Source of the DNA: a candidate division WOR-3 bacterium
GTDB lineage: Bacteria > Hydrothermota > Hydrothermia > B15-G9 > WFZT01
Direction of reading: 5' to 3'
Length of the DNA stretch: 64,000 bases
NCBI GenBank assembly: GCA_027053075.1
Contig: JALUEE010000078.1
Coordinates: 43,573 to 107,572 of the forward strand
Shown: one piece after another, positions 2,941 through 57,299 of the stretch
Numbering within the stretch: position 1 is the first letter of the stretch
How the letters are laid out: the number at the start of each line of letters is the position of its first letter
Translations under genes and position numbers: made by a program
Notes under the pieces: generated by a model
The model's database searches: none
What the model saw: the letters and a program-made list of their open reading frames with translations, nothing else
What the model was told of the DNA's origin: nothing

Positions 2941-3289
2941 GCAAAGCTCGTTTGAAAAATCCTGAATTTTAGTTACCATCCTTTCCAGCGGATTCTCACT
3001 ACCTCACTGATAATTACAGTCCACACCCATCCAGAATTTTCTAAACTGTGAGAAATCTTTGATTATTTCTTTTAAAAGCACATTTCCCCATCATGGGTGC
3101 TCTTTACATGCTTTCCCACCATTTTACCTATCTGTGGAATTTCTTCTTTTTTCCATTCACCTGTGAGACTTCTACCACATTTTCTTCCCCTCCCGCAAAG
3201 CGGGAGGGCATTGAGGGGGGAGGGCAAACCTTACATCTATCCTCCCAAATTTGAAAAAACTGCAAACATTGTCCTATAATACTTCCAGC

Positions 3290-5311
3290 ATGGTAAATCT
3301 ACTTTTTGGCATACACTGCCATCAGCCGGTGGGTAACTTCGATTACGTTATCAAACACGCCTTCGAGAAATCCTACAAACCTTTCCTCGAGACACTTTAC
3401 AACTATCCGGATTTCAAGTTTTCCATCCATTACACAGGCCCACTTTTAGAATGGATTGAGCAAAATGAGCCTGAATTCTTTGAAATCATCCGCGAAATGG
3501 TCAGCAGAAAGCAGGTTGAAATATTTGTCAGCGGATTCTATGAGCCTGTACTTGCTTCTATTCCGGAAAATGACCGCGAGGCACAGATTCTCATAGCCCG
3601 TGAATACGTCATTAGAAAGTTTCATTACATGCCCGATGGCCTATGGCTCACCGAACGGGTCTGGGACCCATCAATCGTGAAATCTCTTATTAAATCTGGC
3701 ATTAACTACGTTCTCGTCGATGACTTCCACTTCCTATCAGCAGGGTTTGACAAAGCTAACCTCCACGGCTATTACCTCACAGAATCTGAAGGGCAAACCC
3801 TCGGGATATTCCCGATTGATGAGAAACTCCGCTATCTAACCCCATTTAGACCGGTTGATGAAACCCTAAAATACCTGAAAGAGCTCCATGAAAGCCAGAA
3901 AGAAGCTGCCATCATCTTTGACGATGGGGAAAAATTTGGTATCTGGCCAGGGACCCACGACTGGGTTTACAAAAAAGGATGGCTCAAAAAATTCATAGAA
4001 GGCATACTATCCCTCGAATTTGTCCAGACTTCAACATACAGGGAATTTTTTGAATCGCATAAACCCTTAGGAAGAGCCTACCTTCCAACAGCTTCCTATT
4101 TTGAGATGAGCGAATGGTCCCTGATGCCTGAAAAAGCTCTTAAATTCGTGGAATTTGTTAATAGGCTCAAATCCGAAGGCATATTCGAAGAAAACAAAAT
4201 TTTTGTCCGTGGGGGAATCTGGCAAAATTTCCTCGTAAAATACAGCGAAGCCAACAGAATGCACAAAAAGATGGTCTATATTTCCGGAGAGCTCAAGGAC
4301 ACTCCCGTGGAGGAGAAAATCCCCCTCTATAGGGCTCAATGTAACGACGCCTACTGGCACGGAATCTTTGGTGGACTTTATCTTCCGCATCTTAGACATG
4401 CGAACTATTCAAATCTTCTAAAAGCTGAGCGAAACCTTCCTGCACCAATCTTTGAGGAAATTGACATTGATTGTGACGGATTTTATGAAATTTACGCGAG
4501 GACAAAATTTATCGTCGCGCAGATAAAGCCATCCTACGGTGGTGCCCTAACAGAGTTTTCCTCCCTCAAACAGGCTCTGAACTTTCAGGACACCCTCATG
4601 AGAAGATTTGAGCACTACCACAAGGGGCTTAAAGAGACACACCATAGTGAGAGTGGAGTGGCCTCCATCCACGAGATGCCAAAAAAGGTTGACAGAAAGA
4701 AACTGATTTACGATTGGTCGGAGAAATTTTCGTTACTTGACCATTTTATAGAGGACTCTCCGGAGGCAAAGAGCCTTGCCCGCGTTGAATTTAAAGAATT
4801 GGGAGACTTTGTTAACCAGCCATACGAGTACTTTATGGAGAAAAACGGGGTGAAGCTTCACCGCTCTGGTGGTGTATTTGATGGGGGAAAACGCCCAATC
4901 GAGATTGAAAAGGAAATAACCATACCGCTCGAGAGACCTGAGGTTATTGCAAAATACAGAATCCCTGGAAGGTCTGGCAATGCAGTTTTTGCCGTGGAAT
5001 TTAATTTCTCCATGCCTTCTGCCGATTCAAAAGAATCCCGTATCATCCTGGATGGCAAAATCATTGGCAATTTCCACGACATACTTGATGCGAGGGGACA
5101 CGAACTCATTTTAGACGACACCGTTTTCAACACAGCCGTAAAGCTCAGAAGTGAAAGGGAAACAGTTTTCAGGATATTCCCGGTTTATACTGTATCACAA
5201 TCTGAGAGTGGACTTGATTACACGTATCAGGAGACGGGGATTTTTATGTTATTTGGTCCGGTTGAAGGGATATTTGAAAATACCATAACTATTTCGATAC
5301 CTGGAGGATGA
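3290..5311 (+). CDS. GH57 alpha-amylase / 4-alpha-glucanotransferase
   Basis: GIHCHQP, GLWLTERVW, FDDGEKFG, AQCNDAYWHG conserved GH57 regions. Confidence 0.92.
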   Translation: MVNLLFGIHCHQPVGNFDYVIKHAFEKSYKPFLETLYNYPDFKFSIHYTGPLLEWIEQNEPEFFEIIREMVSRKQVEIFVSGFYEPVLASIPENDREAQILIAREYVIRKFHYMPDGLWLTERVWDPSIVKSLIKSGINYVLVDDFHFLSAGFDKANLHGYYLTESEGQTLGIFPIDEKLRYLTPFRPVDETLKYLKELHESQKEAAIIFDDGEKFGIWPGTHDWVYKKGWLKKFIEGILSLEFVQTSTYREFFESHKPLGRAYLPTASYFEMSEWSLMPEKALKFVEFVNRLKSEGIFEENKIFVRGGIWQNFLVKYSEANRMHKKMVYISGELKDTPVEEKIPLYRAQCNDAYWHGIFGGLYLPHLRHANYSNLLKAERNLPAPIFEEIDIDCDGFYEIYARTKFIVAQIKPSYGGALTEFSSLKQALNFQDTLMRRFEHYHKGLKETHHSESGVASIHEMPKKVDRKKLIYDWSEKFSLLDHFIEDSPEAKSLARVEFKELGDFVNQPYEYFMEKNGVKLHRSGGVFDGGKRPIEIEKEITIPLERPEVIAKYRIPGRSGNAVFAVEFNFSMPSADSKESRIILDGKIIGNFHDILDARGHELILDDTVFNTAVKLRSERETVFRIFPVYTVSQSESGLDYTYQETGIFMLFGPVEGIFENTITISIPGG

Positions 5312-5312
5312 A

Positions 5313-6347
5313 ATGCCAGAGTTAAGATATGACCCAATACGCCAGAGATGGACAATAATCTCTATTGAACGAGGCAGGAGACCTCACGAGTATGTTACCG
5401 AAAAGGAAGAGGTGAAGAAAGTAGACTCCTGCCCATTTGATTATGGGAACGAGCAGAGAACTCCGCCTGAGATATATGCCATTTCTGACCAACCGAGGCA
5501 GCCAAATACACCTGGCTGGAAGGTCAGAGTGGTGCCCAATAAGTATCCGGCACTGAGAATCGAGGGAGAGTTAAAAAGGGAAGGAGTTGGCCTCTTTGAT
5601 GTGGTCTCTGGAATCGGAGCCCATGAAGTGATCATCGAAACACCTGACCACAACCGTGAAATGAGCGACAGAACCCCTGAGGAGATAGCGCTGGTTTTGA
5701 AAGCCTACAAAGAGAGACTCCTTGATCTGAGAAAGGATACACGATTCAGGTACATCCTGGTCTTTAAAAATCATGGAAAGGATGCAGGGGCATCTCTCTC
5801 GCATCCGCATTCACAGTTAATAGCGACGCCGATTTTCCCGCCCGTGGTTAAAGCAGAGCTCGTAAGCGCACGCGAGTATTATTTGAGGAAAGAACGCTGT
5901 ATTTTCTGCGACATCATAAAACAGGAGCTCACATTGAGGGACAGAATCGTATGGGAAAGCGACAAATATGTTTTATGGGAACCATTTGCCTCTTCCTTCC
6001 CCTTTGAAACCTGGCTATTCCCCAAATACCACTCTCACGATTTTGCACTCCTTCCGGATGAGGAACTCTACGACCTCGCAGTGGCATTAAAGGAGATGCT
6101 CGTAAGGATAAAGGCCTTATTAAACGATCCTCCGTACAACATGGTGCTTCACACTGCTCCTCCACCCCATCCGAGGCCGGGGCATGCGGATTACTGGGAA
6201 ACCCTTGAATTTGACTTTCATTGGCATATTGAATTGATTCCAAGAATCACAAAAATCGCGGGGTTTGAATGGGGATCAGGTCTTCACATAAATCCAACTC
6301 CACCAGAAGAGGCAGCAAAATATTTGAGAGAAGTAGAGCTAATTTAA
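5313..6347 (+). CDS. galT: GalT-family hexose-1-phosphate nucleotidyltransferase
   Basis: ELRYDP, CPF, VVPNKYP, GASLSHPHSQ (HxH motif), FHWHIE. Confidence 0.85.
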   Translation: MPELRYDPIRQRWTIISIERGRRPHEYVTEKEEVKKVDSCPFDYGNEQRTPPEIYAISDQPRQPNTPGWKVRVVPNKYPALRIEGELKREGVGLFDVVSGIGAHEVIIETPDHNREMSDRTPEEIALVLKAYKERLLDLRKDTRFRYILVFKNHGKDAGASLSHPHSQLIATPIFPPVVKAELVSAREYYLRKERCIFCDIIKQELTLRDRIVWESDKYVLWEPFASSFPFETWLFPKYHSHDFALLPDEELYDLAVALKEMLVRIKALLNDPPYNMVLHTAPPPHPRPGHADYWETLEFDFHWHIELIPRITKIAGFEWGSGLHINPTPPEEAAKYLREVELI

Positions 6348-6364
6348 AACGAGGAGGTTTTTCT

Positions 6365-7537
6365 ATGTTAGGAGACCTTATAGGCCACCTTGAGAAGGAG
6401 GAGCACAGGATTTTGCGGGACACTGTTGCCCGCTTTGCAAAGGATAAGATTGCACCAATCGCAGCAAAAATCGACGAAGAGGATTGGTTACCCGAGGAGA
6501 TATTCAAAGAGATGGGACAGCTCGGCTTCACAGGGATTATGATTCCAGAGGAATACGGTGGCTTTGGAATAGACCCTCTCTCCGCTGTCATCGTTTTAGA
6601 AGAGATTGCGAAGCAAAGCGCCTCTGTTGCTCTTTCACTTATGGTTACCTCGGTTTTATTTGGTCATAATGTAGCCTATTGGGGGCAAAACGAGGAGCTA
6701 AAGAAGAAATACCTGCCAAGGATTGCCTCTGGTGAGATCATCGGCGCTTATGCACTCACAGAGCCTGATGCGGGCTCCGATTCTGTTAGTATTAAAACCC
6801 GCGCTGAAAGGAAGGGGGACTACTTTATTGTCAATGGTCAGAAGATGTTCATCACCAACGCACCTGTTGCCGATGTTTTCTATGTTTTTGTCTATACTGA
6901 CCCATCCAAGAAAAAAGAGGGCATGAGTGTGCTACTGATTGACAGGGATATGGAAGGGGTGACAATTGCGAAAAAACTCGAAAAAATGGGTATGCGCGGC
7001 TCTCCCACAGGCCTCATCTTCTTTGAAGACGTCAAAGTACCTGTTTCAAATATTATCGGAACAGAAGGTATGGGATACCCTCAGATGTTGAAAAGCCTTG
7101 AAATCGAGAGAATGGTAATTTCTGCCATTTCCACAGGTGTTTCTCTTGCTGCACTCGACTGGATGGTGAGGTACGCAAATGAGAGGAAACAGTTCGGGAA
7201 ACCTATAGGTCAGTTTGAAATGATAATGAAAAAAATAGCCGATGCTGGTGCCCAGCTTGATGCTGTAAGAACCTATCTCTATACCTACGCAGCAACCTAT
7301 GATGAAGAGAGGGACAACAGATTCGAATCAGCATCAGTCAAATTCCTGGCCTCCGAGACAGCGGTGAAGATTACTCTCGATGCCATACAGGTACTTGGTG
7401 GATATGGTTACACCAAAGAGTATCCGGTTGAAAGATACATGAGGGATGCGAAGCTCCTTGATATCGGCTCCGGAACCTCTGAAATTATGCGCTTTGTAGC
7501 GGCAAAATCCCTGCTCAAGGCCGGAAAGATTATCTAA
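6365..7537 (+). CDS. Acyl-CoA dehydrogenase
   Basis: ALTEPDAGSD, GQKMFITN, RKQFGKPI, QVLGGYGY; GGAGG RBS before ATG 6365. Confidence 0.93.
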   Translation: MLGDLIGHLEKEEHRILRDTVARFAKDKIAPIAAKIDEEDWLPEEIFKEMGQLGFTGIMIPEEYGGFGIDPLSAVIVLEEIAKQSASVALSLMVTSVLFGHNVAYWGQNEELKKKYLPRIASGEIIGAYALTEPDAGSDSVSIKTRAERKGDYFIVNGQKMFITNAPVADVFYVFVYTDPSKKKEGMSVLLIDRDMEGVTIAKKLEKMGMRGSPTGLIFFEDVKVPVSNIIGTEGMGYPQMLKSLEIERMVISAISTGVSLAALDWMVRYANERKQFGKPIGQFEMIMKKIADAGAQLDAVRTYLYTYAATYDEERDNRFESASVKFLASETAVKITLDAIQVLGGYGYTKEYPVERYMRDAKLLDIGSGTSEIMRFVAAKSLLKAGKII

Positions 7538-7671
7538 CCGGGGAGTTTTTAAAAACTAAATCTATTTGAAACTTTGCTTCTTTCAGCACATCTTTTTGCG
7601 GAAGGGTTTATATGGAAAAATTTCCTCAAAAATGGGGATTTCTGAATTTTAAGAACAGGATTTCCAAAGGG

Positions 7672-7797
7672 TGAGCTGTTTAGAAAAAATTCAGAAGTTA
7701 GTAGATTTATAAAATGAATTCCCCCCACCTGTCTCCTCCCCCCACGCACAAAGTGCGTGGGGGGAGGATGGGAAGGGGGCATTTTCGAACACTTTTC
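7672..7797. mobile_element. Inverted copy of the ~125-bp MITE-like element
   Basis: Reverse complement aligns to 2766-2890, including hairpin and AGGTGGGGGGAATT flank. Confidence 0.6.
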
Positions 7798-7855
7798 CAA
7801 AGGGTTTTAAATAAACTCCCAGAGTCGTATAATTGTCAAAAATGGGAGGTGTGAA

Positions 7856-10090
7856 ATGATAGAAATTGTGTTATCGGTCATTTTAGCATTCAATCCTTCG
7901 GTAAACAACTGGCAATGGAACTCCATCGGTCCTGATGGGGGTACAGTTCTGTCCATTGCCTCCAACTCAGACGGGACAAATCTTCTGGCTGTTACAATTG
8001 GAGCGGTGTGGAAATTTAATGGTTCAAGCTGGTCAACCGTATTTCCAATCTCAGGTCCCGGTACTATTCTCAATACCGGCCAGGATAGTTTCTGTTTGAT
8101 TATCTCAGACGACTCTACTCTTGTCTACACTTCATCTGATGGAGGTAATACCTGGACCCAAACCTACTCCTCAGACCGTTGGTTTGCGGGAGCTTCCAAC
8201 GTGAATTCGCATTATGTGTATATCGCAAATGGAGACTCGGTATACATTTCTTCAGACGGTGGGAATACCTGGACAAGTGTCCCCAGACCGATAAATTCAT
8301 CAAACAACATAAACTTAAATGGATGCCGAATCTCGTACTCCCCCAACTTTCCCTCAGTTGTTTTTATGGCAGTATCCGGCGATAGCATGGGAAACCCAAT
8401 GCTCTGGCTCTTTAAATCCAGTAACTATGGTCAGAGCTGGTCACTTGTTTTTAATGATACCATCATAAGCGAAATTGACGCATTCCTCGTAGACCCTGAT
8501 GACACTAATAGATTATTCATCGGGGCAGGAATTGGAGAAGATAATTCCATTCCAGGAATATATGTTTCCACTGATGGAGGAGCAACCTGGACACCAACAA
8601 TTGCATCCATTCAGGCGGGTATAATTTTCCCGAGTGATCTAAAGATGTATAACGACACACTATATGTCGCTTCCCTTATAAACCCAGGAATATATAAAGG
8701 ATTCCAGGTAGCGGGTTTATGGTATTTCAACGCTTTATCCACAGACTATATCACTTACTCTCTTGATATAACTTCGAATGGTACAATGTATGCTGGGATC
8801 AGTGGCGGGGTGATGCAATCATCTGATAGAGCAAACTTCCAGGATATAACTCAGGGACTTCGAGCAGTTTATACACCTTACACACACGGAGTTATTGGAA
8901 CTTACTACTCAGTCGAGGCCAATGGGTACATTTACATGATTGATGGAGTATTTACAGCGGAGTGGACTGGTCCTGTTTTCACAAATGTCCTTTATTACAG
9001 CTCCAATGGCGGTAACACATGGTCAAAGCGGTTCTTGCCAGGAATAATCATGCCGGTCGGGGTACAAACTTCACCTACAAACCCATCTGTTGTCTATCTT
9101 TCGGGACTCGGATACAACTTTGATCCAACAGGTAACTTCCGACTCCATTCCATTTACAAAAGTACCGATTATGGAGCCACTTTCACCGCAATGGACCCTG
9201 GATTCACAATAGATAGTTTAGCATATTTCTACGACGTTACATGGGTCTCACCTTCAGACCCCAACAGAATTATTGTCAAAGCCTACACATTTGATAAAAA
9301 TGGCCCGAAGCCAGGAGGCGCCTCATTGCTCCTCTCAACTGATGGTGGTGCCTCGTTCAGCGCTATCCTGCCAAACTTTGTGCCATTGAGGGTAGTGGGA
9401 ACTGACACAGTGTATGCGGCAGGATATAATCCAACCCCCACAATCCTCATAAGCCGAGACGGCGGAGATAACTGGAATCTCTTTACCATCCCTCCAGGAG
9501 TGGTCAACGATATGGCCATCGAAAACGGCTATCTCTACTACTGTTTCAACGGTCAAAATGGTCTTATGGTGGAGAGATCCTCTAATGGGGTAACAATTGA
9601 TACTCTTTGGTCTTTTAGCATTTACACCGATTTTGCGAAGCTCGTAACCAACGGAAATGATGTGTTTGTAAGTTTCAAGACTTATCAAGAAGCTGAGCAA
9701 TTCGTTTATCATTACAAAAATTCAAACTGGTCGGCCGACACCGTTGATTTTACAGTGGGAGGCCTCATGCTATCTGACACATCATTGATGGCGTTTACAG
9801 CGGGAAGGAGCATCTACTCGAGCACAGAAGCACTGACAGGGGTTGGTGAATCCGCTCCCATCGGCTACACAAAACATGTAAAAATCCTCTATACAGCAAA
9901 GGGACCGGAAATGTTTGTTAGCACGAATTCTCCGTACAAACTCAGGGTTTACGACGCCACCGGAAGGGAAATACTGGATAAGAAGGTTATGAGTCATAGG
10001 GTGATTATGAATTTTAGGCCCGGGGTATATTTCTATCGGGTGGAGAGCAGCAAACTTCGTGAGACGGGAAAATTTGTGATTTTTAGGTAA
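7856..10090 (+). CDS. Secreted BNR/Asp-box repeat protein with T9SS-type C-terminal sorting domain
   Basis: Multiple S-x-D-G-G-x-T-W repeats; C-terminal VYDATGR...PGVYF...KFVIFR. Confidence 0.8.
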   Translation: MIEIVLSVILAFNPSVNNWQWNSIGPDGGTVLSIASNSDGTNLLAVTIGAVWKFNGSSWSTVFPISGPGTILNTGQDSFCLIISDDSTLVYTSSDGGNTWTQTYSSDRWFAGASNVNSHYVYIANGDSVYISSDGGNTWTSVPRPINSSNNINLNGCRISYSPNFPSVVFMAVSGDSMGNPMLWLFKSSNYGQSWSLVFNDTIISEIDAFLVDPDDTNRLFIGAGIGEDNSIPGIYVSTDGGATWTPTIASIQAGIIFPSDLKMYNDTLYVASLINPGIYKGFQVAGLWYFNALSTDYITYSLDITSNGTMYAGISGGVMQSSDRANFQDITQGLRAVYTPYTHGVIGTYYSVEANGYIYMIDGVFTAEWTGPVFTNVLYYSSNGGNTWSKRFLPGIIMPVGVQTSPTNPSVVYLSGLGYNFDPTGNFRLHSIYKSTDYGATFTAMDPGFTIDSLAYFYDVTWVSPSDPNRIIVKAYTFDKNGPKPGGASLLLSTDGGASFSAILPNFVPLRVVGTDTVYAAGYNPTPTILISRDGGDNWNLFTIPPGVVNDMAIENGYLYYCFNGQNGLMVERSSNGVTIDTLWSFSIYTDFAKLVTNGNDVFVSFKTYQEAEQFVYHYKNSNWSADTVDFTVGGLMLSDTSLMAFTAGRSIYSSTEALTGVGESAPIGYTKHVKILYTAKGPEMFVSTNSPYKLRVYDATGREILDKKVMSHRVIMNFRPGVYFYRVESSKLRETGKFVIFR

Positions 10091-38749: not shown

Positions 38750-38996
38750 CATTAATAAAAATTTTTGACTAATGGTTATATCTCATAAGTGACCTGGATG
38801 TTTTATAGAACTATTCAAAGGTCCCAGATTTGAGTACAAAAAGAAATGGATATGTAGATTTTTATGTGTGGATTTTTGATTGGGTTAAAATTTGTCTAAT
38901 AGTTGTATTTAGTACTTCATTTTGACTCATTTCTAAGAACTATTTGAAATGTTTACTATCCGTCCTTTACAATCTCCCAGAACAGGAGTGGTTAGT

Positions 38997-39905
38997 ATGA
39001 ATTTTGCTGGACTGCCCTTGGGGATCAGGGAAAAAGTTTTAAGGTGCCTCGAGATGTTTAATAAAGGATTCCCTATTCTAATCAGAGGAGAGACAGGGGT
39101 GGGGAAAAGTTTCCTCGCCCGGGAAATTCATAGAGCATCCAGATGGAAAGATGGAGAATTTGTACGAGTTGATCTTGCATCTCTTGAAAATGACCTCTTT
39201 GAATCGCAGCTGTTTGGATACGATAGGGGAACTTTCACCGGCGGATTAATCGAAGGTAAAGTAGGACTGCTCGATCTGGCGCAGGGTGGAACTGTTTTCT
39301 TTGATGAAATTGGGAATCTGGACCTCCGATACCAGAAAAAGTTGCTTATTTTCCTGGACGAGAGGAGATACAGAAGGGTGGGAGGTAAAAATTATATCCA
39401 TCTAAACGCAGGTATAATTTTTGCGACAAACATATATATAAAGGGTGCCCTGACCGAGGGGAAATTGAGGGAAGACCTGTACCACAGGATTAAAACATGT
39501 GAGATAGAACTGCCTCCTCTTCGGGCAAGACTCTTTGTGTTAGAGGAAATCATAGAGTTATTGATAAAGATTAAGAATCTCAAACCATTGAAGTTTACCC
39601 CGGATGCAATCGAAAAGATGAAAGAGTATTCCTGGCCCGGCAATTTGAGGGAGCTATTGAATTTTCTTGTGGAATTGAACTCATTGGGGAAGCATACAAT
39701 AGAGATATCAGACCTACCAGAGAACGTAAGGAATCACAATAAAGCGGATAGCAATGGAAGGATTAGACCTGAGCTGATAATAAATGAGCTGAGTAAAACA
39801 GGAGGGAATGTAAAAGAAACGGCAAGCCGGCTGGGGGTTTCGAGGCAATACCTATATAAGATGTTCCGCGCTTACAGGATAAATCCCGCGGATTATAGAC
39901 GGTAA
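38997..39905 (+). CDS. Sigma54-interaction AAA+ regulator with Fis HTH and no sensory domain
   Basis: GETGVGKS, GTFTGG (GAFTGA variant), FFDEIG, WPGNLREL, HTH. Confidence 0.88.
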   Translation: MNFAGLPLGIREKVLRCLEMFNKGFPILIRGETGVGKSFLAREIHRASRWKDGEFVRVDLASLENDLFESQLFGYDRGTFTGGLIEGKVGLLDLAQGGTVFFDEIGNLDLRYQKKLLIFLDERRYRRVGGKNYIHLNAGIIFATNIYIKGALTEGKLREDLYHRIKTCEIELPPLRARLFVLEEIIELLIKIKNLKPLKFTPDAIEKMKEYSWPGNLRELLNFLVELNSLGKHTIEISDLPENVRNHNKADSNGRIRPELIINELSKTGGNVKETASRLGVSRQYLYKMFRAYRINPADYRR

Positions 39906-46898: not shown

Positions 46899-47063
46899 GT
46901 GTAAACAAGGTAGTTGACACAGCAAAACCCGCATGAATACTGGGAATATCCCACTAAATAGTACAAAAGTACTGTAAACAATTAGTTGACACACATAAGT
47001 TGTGATACTATCAACACTTACAACATTTAAAAGCAAACCAGTGTAAACTAATTAGTTTACACT
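46899..47063. promoter_or_regulatory. Three operator-like palindromes upstream of lanthipeptide precursor
   Basis: 46899-46920, 46972-46992 and perfect AGTGTAAACTAATTAGTTTACACT 47040-47063. Confidence 0.7.
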
Positions 47064-47135
47064 TTGCATTGAACCTCATAAATGCAAGAGACGAAAATCC
47101 TCTATATTACTATACTTTACGTTTCGTTATTTCTA

Positions 47136-47151: not shown

Positions 47152-47204
47152 ATTAAATAATAATGGTAGCGCGCTATCGAAAAACTTAAAAAGGAGGTAA
47201 AGCT

Positions 47205-47342
47205 ATGTATAGAGTGCTATCACTGCAAAGAATGGGAACGAGAGTAATGAATGACGATAATGGCGGGTGTCACGGAAGCTGTATGAGTTATCTCTTCTGT
47301 TCAACTCTGAGTATAGGTTGTGGACGGGGACGTGGAAAGTAA
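47205..47342 (+). CDS. Class III lanthipeptide precursor A1 (45 aa; not in ORF track)
   Basis: MYRVLSLQRMGTRVMNDDNGGCHGSCMSYLFCSTLSIGCGRGRGK; AAGGAGGT RBS; LxLQ leader; two S-x-x-S-x(2-3)-C motifs. Confidence 0.92.
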   Translation: MYRVLSLQRMGTRVMNDDNGGCHGSCMSYLFCSTLSIGCGRGRGK

Positions 47343-47345
47343 AAA

Positions 47346-47382
47346 TATGGTGCCGAGCACCCTGCGGGTGCTCGGCACCATA
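47346..47382 (+). terminator. Stem-loop between precursor and lanKC
   Basis: 17-bp perfect stem, TGC loop; no U-tract on + strand, so probably an mRNA stabiliser or attenuator. Confidence 0.6.
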
Positions 47383-51512: not shown

Positions 51513-51692
51513 ATGTGGCAGGTCCTCAGTCTCCAGATTCTGGGGATGCAAAGCAAGGATAAAACAAAAGGGAAAAGTACCATGAGCTACTCTTTCTGCT
51601 CGCTCCTCAGTCTTGGATGTGAAACCAGCAAGAAAGGCAAAAAGAAACGCAGGATTAATTTAAAAAGTTCACTTAGTATAAAATGCGGATAG
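51513..51692 (+). CDS. Class III lanthipeptide precursor A2 (59 aa)
   Basis: MWQVLSLQILGMQSKDKTKGKSTMSYSFCSLLSLGCETSKKGKKKRRINLKSSLSIKCG; GGAGGT RBS; three S-x-x-S-x(2-3)-C motifs. Confidence 0.9.
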   Translation: MWQVLSLQILGMQSKDKTKGKSTMSYSFCSLLSLGCETSKKGKKKRRINLKSSLSIKCG

Positions 51693-55712: not shown

Positions 55713-57299
55713 ATGCCATTCATCAGAGAAATCACTCATAAAAGAAAATCCGGCAAAGAGGTAACATATATCCAAATCGTCCACTCTTACAGAGTCGGCA
55801 AAAAAGTTAAACAAAAAATCATCGGTACCCTCGGCAGAAAAGACCAACTCCTGAAATCCGGCTCCCTCGAAAGATTGGCCTATAAACTCCTGGAGATAGC
55901 TGGTAAGCTTGAGGAGTTTCAGAACGAGAGGAAGGGGATGCCAAATCTTTTCCTCAAGGATGCGAGGGAGATGGGAAGGGCATATCTTTTCAAGTATCTC
56001 TGGAAGAAGGCAGGGTTACATAAATTTTTCAGGAGAGTAGCGGAGAAGGAGGGATTGAGTTTTGATCTTTCGGAGGCGATATACGAGATGGTGTTGAACA
56101 GGATAACAGAGCCGACGAGCAAGAGGAGACTGTTTATGGAGTGGAGGGAGGAGCATGATCTGGAGGATAAGGGGTTGGAGCTACATCATTACTACAGGGC
56201 ATTGGATTATCTTGTGAGAGTGAAGATGACACTTGAGGATTATTTGTACATGAGGGGAAGGGATTTATTTTCAGGGCCACCGAAGGTGGCATTTTTTGAT
56301 ACGACGTCGACATATTTTGAGGGTGAGGGGCCGGAGGGATTGGCGGAATATGGATACAGTAAAGATAAGAGGCCGGACAGGAAGCAGGTGGTGATAGGGG
56401 TGGTATTGGGGGAAGGGGGATTGCCGATATATCATAATGTATGGGAGGGTTCGCAGATGGATTTGGTGAGTTTTCGGGGTGTGTTGAGGGAATTGAGGGA
56501 AAGGTGGGGATTAGAGGAGGTGATATGGGTAGCGGACAGGGGATGCGTATCACCGGGGTTGCTGGAAGTATTGGATAAGGAGGGGATAAAGTATGTAGTG
56601 GGGGTAAAGATGAGGAAGGAGAGGGAGGTAAGGGACGAGGTATTAAGTAGAGGTGGGCGTTATAGAGAGATGGATGGAGGGTTGAAGGTGAAGGAAGTGA
56701 GGAATGGAGGGCACAGGTATGTGGTATGTTATGATCCGGTGACGGCGGAGAGAGACAGGAGAGTAAGGGAGGAGATAATAGAGTCGCTGGAGGATGGGTT
56801 AAAAGGAAAGGGGATGGGGGTGATACAGAAGGGATATAGAAGATATTTGAAGAAGGGTGGAGGAAGATATGAGATAGACAGGGAGAAGGTGGAGAAGGAG
56901 TCGAGATACGATGGGAAGTGGGTATTGAGGACGAATGTGGATTTAGAGACGGAGGAGGTAGTGAGGGTATACAAGGATTTATGGAAGGTGGAGAGGGCAT
57001 TCAGGGACATGAAGGATGTGTTAAAGATAAGGCCGATATATCATTGGAAGGAAGAGAGGGTGAGGGGGCATATAATGGTGTGTTTTTTAGCGTTATATTT
57101 AATGCAGTACCTGGAGTTCATGATGGGTGAAGAGAAGGGTGAGGTGGGGAAGTTGATGAAGGCGATGAGGAGGTTGAAGGTAGGGGAAGTGGAGCTGAAT
57201 GGTAGGATGTACAGGGTAAGGACGGAGGTGGATAATGAGGTAGAGGGGATGCTGGGGCGAATAGGGTTGAAGTTACCGCCATTGATACGAGCCATGTAA
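55713..57299 (+). CDS. IS1634-family DDE transposase
   Basis: FFDTTSTYFEG, GYSKDKRPD, VADRG, Y..LW.VERAFR..K, RPIYHW. Confidence 0.93.
   Translation: MPFIREITHKRKSGKEVTYIQIVHSYRVGKKVKQKIIGTLGRKDQLLKSGSLERLAYKLLEIAGKLEEFQNERKGMPNLFLKDAREMGRAYLFKYLWKKAGLHKFFRRVAEKEGLSFDLSEAIYEMVLNRITEPTSKRRLFMEWREEHDLEDKGLELHHYYRALDYLVRVKMTLEDYLYMRGRDLFSGPPKVAFFDTTSTYFEGEGPEGLAEYGYSKDKRPDRKQVVIGVVLGEGGLPIYHNVWEGSQMDLVSFRGVLRELRERWGLEEVIWVADRGCVSPGLLEVLDKEGIKYVVGVKMRKEREVRDEVLSRGGRYREMDGGLKVKEVRNGGHRYVVCYDPVTAERDRRVREEIIESLEDGLKGKGMGVIQKGYRRYLKKGGGRYEIDREKVEKESRYDGKWVLRTNVDLETEEVVRVYKDLWKVERAFRDMKDVLKIRPIYHWKEERVRGHIMVCFLALYLMQYLEFMMGEEKGEVGKLMKAMRRLKVGEVELNGRMYRVRTEVDNEVEGMLGRIGLKLPPLIRAM

Follow-up and report, generated by a model that had tools for sequence, protein, structure and literature searches.

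A candidate class III lanthipeptide precursor with two spare cysteines, next to a lanKC gene in a WOR-3 bacterium

The gene cluster and its first precursor

The window (the whole stretch of 64,000 nucleotides that was analysed) carries a gene cluster in the order A1, a 17-bp hairpin, lanKC, an ABC exporter, A2 and a TonB-dependent-receptor-like barrel (Table 1). The core of precursor A1 is GGCHG-SCMSYLFC-STLSIGC-GRGRGK, in which C22 and C26 are spare and C26 lies within motif 1. A sequence-only reading of this DNA had described an unannotated 45-aa ORF with a strong ribosome-binding site, holding two labionin-type motifs plus two spare Cys, one of them inside the first motif. These features were confirmed from the sequence, with AGGAGGT 6 nt upstream of the start codon. 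About 15 billion called proteins include no exact copy of A1 but do include A2 and the LanKC of the same contig, and this fits the description of A1 as unannotated.

Table 1. Positions in the window of the cluster genes and of the features of precursor A1
Feature	Position	Strand	Details and basis
A1 ribosome-binding site AGGAGGT	47192..47198	+	6 nt upstream of ATG, from sequence
lanA1 (precursor A1)	47205..47342	+	45-codon ORF, translation MYRVLSLQRMGTRVMNDDNGGCHGSCMSYLFCSTLSIGCGRGRGK, 45 aa
A1 leader recognition motif V4-L-S-L-Q8, ILELQ type	47214..47228	+	L5, L7 and Q8 invariant in 14 family precursors
A1 spare-Cys segment C22-H23-G24-S25-C26	47268..47282	+	spacing 4 residues, either side of first ring Ser
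A1 ring motif 1, S25-x-x-S28-x-x-x-C32 (S25-C26-M-S28-Y-L-F-C32)	47277..47300	+	S25, S28 and C32 invariant in 14 family precursors
A1 ring motif 2, S33-T-L-S36-I-G-C39	47301..47321	+	S33 and S36 invariant in 14 family precursors
A1 basic tail G40-R-G-R-G-K45	47322..47339	+	looks like basic-linker start of three-motif A2-type precursors
Perfect 17-bp hairpin between A1 and lanKC	47346..47382	+	-34.9 kcal/mol, z -9.4
lanKC, class III lanthipeptide synthetase, 866 aa	47403..50003	+	RamC_N, Pkinase, LANC_like
ABC exporter without peptidase domain, 502 aa	50000..51508	+	PF00664 and PF00005 only
A2 precursor, 59 aa, three ring motifs, Lys/Arg-rich linker, zero spare Cys	51513..51692	+	motif scan, family alignment
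TonB-dependent-receptor-like outer-membrane barrel, 752 aa	51703..53961	+	PF14905, PF00593, PF07715

To see how unusual the A1 pattern is in its own genome, we counted 80,159 ORF starts of 20-100 aa on all 114 contigs. It turned out that tandem SxxS-x2-4-C motifs occur in 4 distinct ORFs, and that only two ORFs genome-wide, A1 and A2, combine tandem ring motifs with an N-terminal LxLQ, both of them in this cluster. The A1 motif pattern thus exceeds the chance expectation in genome ORFs. A role for the ILELQ motif in class III leaders is described in the available text of PMC8341899. A1 matches the family profile with E 7.8e-16 (A1 itself is part of the profile), and it scores below the curated cut-offs of NF033212 (SapB/AmfS; 17.7 of 25 bits) and NF038159 (lanthi_III_b; 13.1 of 30), as A2 also scores under the NCBIfam precursor cut-offs.

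The synthetase reaches 691 bits with NF038151 (cut-off 575) and 485 bits with the class IV model NF038150, under its cut-off of 650, and its structural matches are ThurKC-type PDB entries. It carries PYVKYGTSG and PGQLNGLSG at what we take to be the sites where LanC and LanL have Cys and Cys-His, with the class IV zinc ligands presumably missing. The scan of 16 window proteins brought up no protease, decarboxylase, methyltransferase or oxidoreductase. A PF14905 barrel gene occupies the equivalent place in 6 related clusters, and a different gene stands there in three others tested. In A2 the Lys/Arg-rich linker precedes a conserved KSSLSxxC third motif, and A2 is better conserved across relatives than A1; the linker could be a cleavage site that releases two products.

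The hairpin between A1 and lanKC is likely an mRNA stabiliser or a leaky terminator. Among five related loci that were folded, a hairpin follows the first precursor in four (G042, G033, G029 and L053) and not in G049. Upstream of A1, the intergenic DNA at 46899-47081 contains a 24-nt palindrome (47040-47063) as well as repeats of a GTTGACACA box. Some of this intergenic DNA is met again at two further sites of the genome, and it is a possible regulator-binding element. Genes for sigma-54 activators lie upstream of several related lanKC clusters (L021:154-624, by eye; L047:9698-10939; L050:3754-5004) and at 38949-39905 of the window. In 7 loci our own patterns detected no sigma-54 consensus ahead of the precursors, and sigma-70-like sites are at chance level (3 found versus 1.8 expected). 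Downstream of the cluster a DDE transposase gene (PF01609) lies at 55713-57299, a stretch that is missing in the related genome G004.

Distribution, loss and strain variation

A LanKC above cut-off is present in 12 of 272 genomes of the phylum, this genome included. A profile built from 14 precursors gave strong matches in 7 of the 272 (this genome, G004, G005, G029, G033, G042 and G049) and weak matches in 9, of which those in G056 and G045 were rejected because they lie inside unrelated genes. Homologues were found beside lanKC genes: G042, G033, G029 and L053 each carry a two-motif precursor at A1's position together with a three-motif A2. M1, L5, L7, Q8, S25, S28, C32, S33 and S36 are invariant in the 14 family precursors, and these residues and the positional orthologues together mark A1 as a real family member in a conserved position. 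The earlier proposal that A1 is the precursor of a LanKC substrate is supported by the class III synthetase next door, the leader motif, the homologues at the same position and the conserved hairpin, and A1 is likely a real class III lanthipeptide precursor that gene callers missed.

The host, like the relatives with the two-precursor family, is likely WOR-3: the family precursor P0131 is labelled WOR-3 by its source, and the record L134, titled Candidatus Hydrothermia, has the same gene layout. Organism-labelled public DNA matching this stretch comes from hydrothermal vent metagenomes, of which runs X2 and X3 cover A1. Besides, a record titled Saccharibacteria (L133) holds precursors identical to those of L053 and is likely a misbinned contig.

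A1 is dispensable and patchy even within the genus. In G005, of the same genus and with a LanKC 58% identical, repeat DNA stands where A1 is expected and the cluster has A2 alone. In G004 (92-95% nucleotide identity) a single deletion, at 5940-5997 of L236 (G004:C71), removed A1, lanKC and the ABC gene and left an intact A2 and the barrel gene; no other full-length lanKC match was found in this 89% complete genome, and G001-G003 (82-93% complete) gave no cluster match.

The A1 core is covered by contigs from three runs (X2, X3 and X4) of two other studies, in which changes near contig ends are not listed; run X7 does not reach A1, and X11 gave no contig. Six A1 changes were located, namely N16K, R41W and four synonymous ones (D17, G20, C32 and R43); the synonymous share of 4 of 6 has p 0.04 against 25%, unlisted changes excluded. 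Both differences of an X3 contig (47265-47362) were located, leaving the core protein unchanged with both Cys codons kept, and two X2 contigs starting at 47270 keep C26 with all differences accounted for. For a third X2 contig (47218-47299), 6 of 9 differences are unlocated. In the X4 contig 4 of 5 differences were located, none in a Cys codon, and 153 unrelated letters replace the 5' end of A1. The hairpin shows three strain changes (X3 and X4), all in its 3-nt loop at 47363-47365. Taken together, the losses in G005 and G004 and the displaced 5' end in X4 point to weak or patchy selection on A1.

Spare cysteines and basic tails among relatives

Of the 28 distinct precursors in the family, 24 lack spare Cys altogether; A1 and the two G049 precursors have exactly two each, and the remaining one carries a single spare Cys. 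No precursor but A1 has a Cys ahead of the first motif or right after the first Ser of that motif; at the position of C26 the rest of the family shows S, T, A, V or Q. Since this Cys pair exists only in A1 within the family, it is a recent gain. Under a neutral codon model the chance of at least two Cys among 5-17 free positions is 0.004-0.048, a post-hoc figure. Protein searches did not return any close, full-length orthologue of A1 that has both Cys, a weak test, as short genes are poorly called. The two G049 precursors (L023:4806-5248) carry their two spare Cys elsewhere (SSCS plus CC), and one of them is an 81-aa three-motif form with a long linker.

For a wider view, 160 loci of more distant LanKC relatives were examined, giving 165 candidate precursors in 108 loci and, after 6 non-precursors were dropped by eye, 144 distinct sequences. 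At least two spare Cys are present in 34 of the 144, and in 17 of the 144, from 13 loci, a Cys directly follows the first residue of an assigned motif, motif junctions excluded. In the 42 loci with at least two motifs, assigned by pattern and including kin that are not independent, the spare-Cys count is 0 in 25, 2 in 9, 1 in 5, 4 in 1 and mixed in 2. Related precursors thus repeatedly carry spare Cys or a Cys within the first ring, and the rarity of both had been overstated. As a separate observation, a Gemmatimonadetes record (L175:1931-2336) contains class III-type precursors with 9 and 6 Cys, far Cys-richer than A1.

The closest analogue of the A1 arrangement was found in a cluster titled Candidatus Acidiferrales (L070/L140), whose LanKC is 35% identical and in which all five precursors carry C-x-x-S-C-x-S-[FY]-x-C; one L140 precursor reads CGASCISYLC against CHGSCMSYLFC in A1. 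The spacing of the spare Cys in L140 can be read as four or five, as a CC is present. Immediately behind the fifth L140 precursor lies a DsbA-family gene (PF13462, 102.7 bits) with a CPSC site and an N-terminal hydrophobic stretch, the sole such match in 176 loci. The L140 record (3111-9788, the same cluster as L070) comprises the five C-x-x-S-C precursors, lanKC, an ABC gene and the DsbA-family gene, which has a DsbC_N-like segment, and from this gene content it may possibly be a class III cluster that brings along a disulfide catalyst of its own. Among 401 genomes of the order just one was seen to hold a precursor of the L140 type, so the analogue is a single lineage and the DsbA link stands unreplicated.

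The cationic tail after the last Cys had been called atypical in the sequence-only reading, which holds outside the family and fails within it. In the 144 distant precursors, the last Cys is often followed by a tail of at least 5 residues (83 of 144), and the tail net charge is at least +2 in 3, +3 in none and -2 or lower in 27. Within the family, what follows the second ring Cys of three-motif precursors is mostly basic or Gly-rich (NGRGRE, RGRGNY, GKKKRG, KKVKKD), and terminal +3 tails such as FVKKK and IYPRLKK occur. Other A1-type tails vary freely (TPPDK, TPPAR, GGGNEKS, L), and R41W in strain contigs tells that the A1 tail can change. By comparison of these sequences, GRGRGK is likely a remnant, the start, of the family's basic linker and not a new device.

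Possible fates of the spare cysteines

Class III enzymology, as described in the available text of PMC8341899, involves leader binding via hydrophobic ILELQ residues, mostly C-to-N processing, labionin or lanthionine at Sx2Sx2-5C and borrowed peptidases. Labionin together with a disulfide formed outside LanKC is reported for labyrinthopeptins (PMC10676316, in part) and for paenithopeptins, whose in vitro products have no disulfide when the host oxidoreductase is missing (PMC8960859, in part). We tentatively favour, at a confidence that stays short of probable, that LanKC closes two canonical rings in A1 and that a putative C22-C26 disulfide, made after export, clamps the N-terminus onto the first ring. 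By analogy with class III enzymes, LanKC would bind VLSLQ, work from C to N and carry out five dehydrations of the core, and it would install labionin or lanthionine at S25/S28/C32 and S33/S36/C39 and leave T34 as Dhb. The adjacent S25 is the only dehydrated acceptor N-terminal to either C22 or C26, so both likely leave LanKC as free thiols. The ABC transporter would then export the modified peptide, and a general peptidase, for instance the one M1 peptidase that the genome encodes outside the cluster, would trim the leader until the cross-link blocks it near G21/C22. The oxidation of C22 and C26 would be non-enzymatic or due to an unrecognised oxidase.

For the disulfide speak the gain of two Cys together, four apart, in one lineage of a family where 24 of 28 precursors have no spare Cys, the excess of loci with exactly two spare Cys (9) over those with one (5) among the 42 loci with two-motif precursors, the unchanged C22 and C26 codons of one X3 contig and C26 of two X2 contigs, and the unrelated L070/L140 cluster with CxxSC in 5 of 5 precursors and a DsbA-family gene. 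Against it, A1 orthologues presumably work without the Cys pair and two congeners lack A1, and the main argument is that no oxidation pathway was found: DsbA (PF13462, PF01323), DsbB, VKOR and DsbD had no match in the 95% complete genome, so a disulfide would have to arise by extracellular chemical oxidation or through an oxidase that was not recognised. A protein disulfide oxidoreductase of the cytoplasmic PDO type (TIGR02187) is present. Cytochrome bd was found and a haem-copper oxidase was not in the 95% complete genome, which makes a low-oxygen life likely, and growth is estimated at about 66 C, as for a thermophile. Cys makes up 0.54% of the proteome, and in the 931 proteins without CxxC motifs the Cys counts fall smoothly (424, 292, 112, 54, 28), with no even-number excess seen.

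That no Dsb pathway was found also favours a reading in which the two rings form and C22 and C26 stay reduced, binding a soft metal (Cu, Zn, Hg) together with His23 and the thioether sulfurs, and in which the barrel moves the peptide or the complex across the outer membrane. The C-H-x-x-C arrangement, the TonB-dependent-like gene in the cluster, the copper binding of noursin, a class III lanthipeptide (PMC10206099, available text), and the retention of barrel and A2 in G004 after synthetase loss, as in a non-producing user, all agree with it. It is nevertheless unlikely in our view: the barrel gene also accompanies clusters that lack A1 or whose precursors carry no spare Cys, and is thus independent of C-H-x-x-C, H23 is not common to the L140 analogues, and no metal-regulator or metal-transport gene is evident among the 16 window proteins scanned. 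It is also improbable, at much the same level, that C22 and/or C26 form extra thioethers, through LanKC or by spontaneous Michael addition, with the downstream Dhb34, or with Dha28/Dha36 if the motifs close as lanthionines, giving interlocked rings. This route requires no oxidase and finds five Ser/Thr per four Cys in the A1 core, and the nocardiopeptins are reportedly, according to the title of their study, a case of an unprecedented Lan/Lab bridging pattern. Motifs are not always labionin and mixed patterns exist (PMC8341899, in part), and it is difficult to tell from a synthetase whether Lan or Lab will form (PMC13380574, in part). However, the Cys would have to attack towards the C-terminus, contrary to the usual class III Cys at the motif end, and relatives with a conserved synthetase (58% to G005) have substrates that lack spare Cys.

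The spare Cys might instead be neutral or nearly so, C22 being trimmed with a leader overhang, C26 being a tolerated Ser-to-Cys swap and A1 being a drifting, dispensable paralogue. The C26 site is indeed variable, with five different residues among the other 27 members, AGC or AGT (Ser) becomes TGT by one or two base changes, A1 is lost or disrupted in congeners and one strain contig, and class III N-termini can be ragged from aminopeptidase trimming (PMC8960859, available text). We hold this to be rather improbable, as it requires two independent gains four residues apart in a proteome where Cys is scarce, and as four of the six located strain changes are synonymous (p 0.04, unlisted changes excluded). 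Very improbable is that A1 goes untranslated or is no substrate of LanKC, leaving A2 as the sole real precursor. A1 falls under the NCBIfam precursor cut-offs and the G005 cluster runs on A2 alone, but A2 is likewise under the cut-offs, and A1 has its strong ribosome-binding site, leader, invariant ring residues and conserved hairpin besides positional orthologues in G042, G033, G029 and L053.

Beyond A1 itself, we regard it as conceivable but doubtful that C-x-x-S-C is a recurring, convergent class III module, in which a disulfide or a dithiol metal site grafted on a residue inside the labionin ring would give an interlocked five-ring scaffold, not among characterised lanthipeptides, that acts as a heat-stabilising or redox-switchable clamp. 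As to the biological role, the A1 product may be a signal, an antagonist or a surfactant acting with A2 and the barrel, and our guess leans to antagonism or cell-cell signalling.

The spare Cys of labyrinthopeptins flank the second ring system, one beside the first ring Cys and one at the C-terminus, where the peptide ends. Such a placement was also seen in L164 and L173, with a spacing of 9-12. In A1, by contrast, they sit towards the N-terminus at 22 and 26, four apart and with C26 inside ring A, and the last Cys is followed by a basic tail. The system for labyrinthopeptins A1/A2/A3 of Actinomadura namibiensis (LabA1, LabA2, LabKC) resembles this cluster in its two precursors for one LanKC and its ILELQ-type leader, and A1 in its two tandem Sx2Sx2-5C motifs with two spare Cys, which are there oxidised after LanKC action (PMC8341899 and PMC10676316, both in part). 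The paenithopeptins A-E of Paenibacillus thiaminolyticus (PttA1, PttKC) are class III with labionin and a disulfide from a host function outside the cluster, like the predicted A1 product, and have ragged N-termini from unclustered peptidases (PMC8960859, available text). They differ from A1, as compared by the description in that text, in a single labionin within a larger disulfide ring, a Gram-positive host with an oxidoreductase and an N-methyltransferase in the cluster. SapB/AmfS/durhapeptin-type peptides (RamS family, NF033212/PF19402), with two tandem SxxSxxxC, are the best HMM match of A1 (17.7 bits) and its atlas look-alikes (score 0.84, a lead only), but they are actinobacterial morphogens with two-Cys hydrophobic cores, and A1 is under the family cut-off. 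Stackepeptin has three motifs (PMC8341899, in part), as A2 does, the third in A2 being set off by a long Lys/Arg linker, and A1 has two.

Several other parallels were rejected. Durhapeptin is no four-Cys precedent, as its text gives four cysteines and its printed core two. Noursin (NorA, LanKC-Hbt) has, like A1, a core His, yet its link joins Thr8, beside the central Ser, to His11 (PMC10206099, available text), and His23 of A1 precedes the rings, 11 residues from the only Thr. A lipolanthine or avionin type is excluded by the six residues after C39, with no flavin decarboxylase among the 16 window proteins scanned. Double-glycine processing would suit G20-G21 before C22, yet the 502-aa ABC protein shows membrane and ATPase domains only and no C39 peptidase.

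With standard enzymology, an already known pairing of labionin and disulfide and a patchy occurrence of A1 even in its genus, the cluster is no new kind of system. Characterised class III clusters come from Actinobacteria, Firmicutes and Myxobacteria (PMC12328550, a review, in part), and class III ring patterns are described as restricted (PMC8341899, in part). Literature searches of open-access text found no characterised class III peptide with a disulfide anchored inside ring A, or any from this phylum. If confirmed, the A1 ring topology would be new among the lanthipeptides covered by these searches, and a cross-link inside the labionin ring would extend the restricted patterns; a compact, likely heat-stable scaffold and a synthetase from a thermophile would also be at hand. 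The family offers a natural control, because the same enzyme type takes A2 and orthologous A1 peptides that have no Cys pair. A1 is therefore a worthwhile expression target as a member of an established class III family, in which other members also have spare Cys and basic tails.

Finally, some related loci differ strongly from this cluster. A divergent LanKC clade (L048:9352-10032 in G091 and L028:3027-3308 in G055) has precursors with Lys/Arg/Pro-rich leaders and His/Arg-rich single-Cys cores, of which that of G055 appears broken, and in G063 (L050:5464-8146) lanKC is divided into two ORFs by a frameshift or an assembly error.
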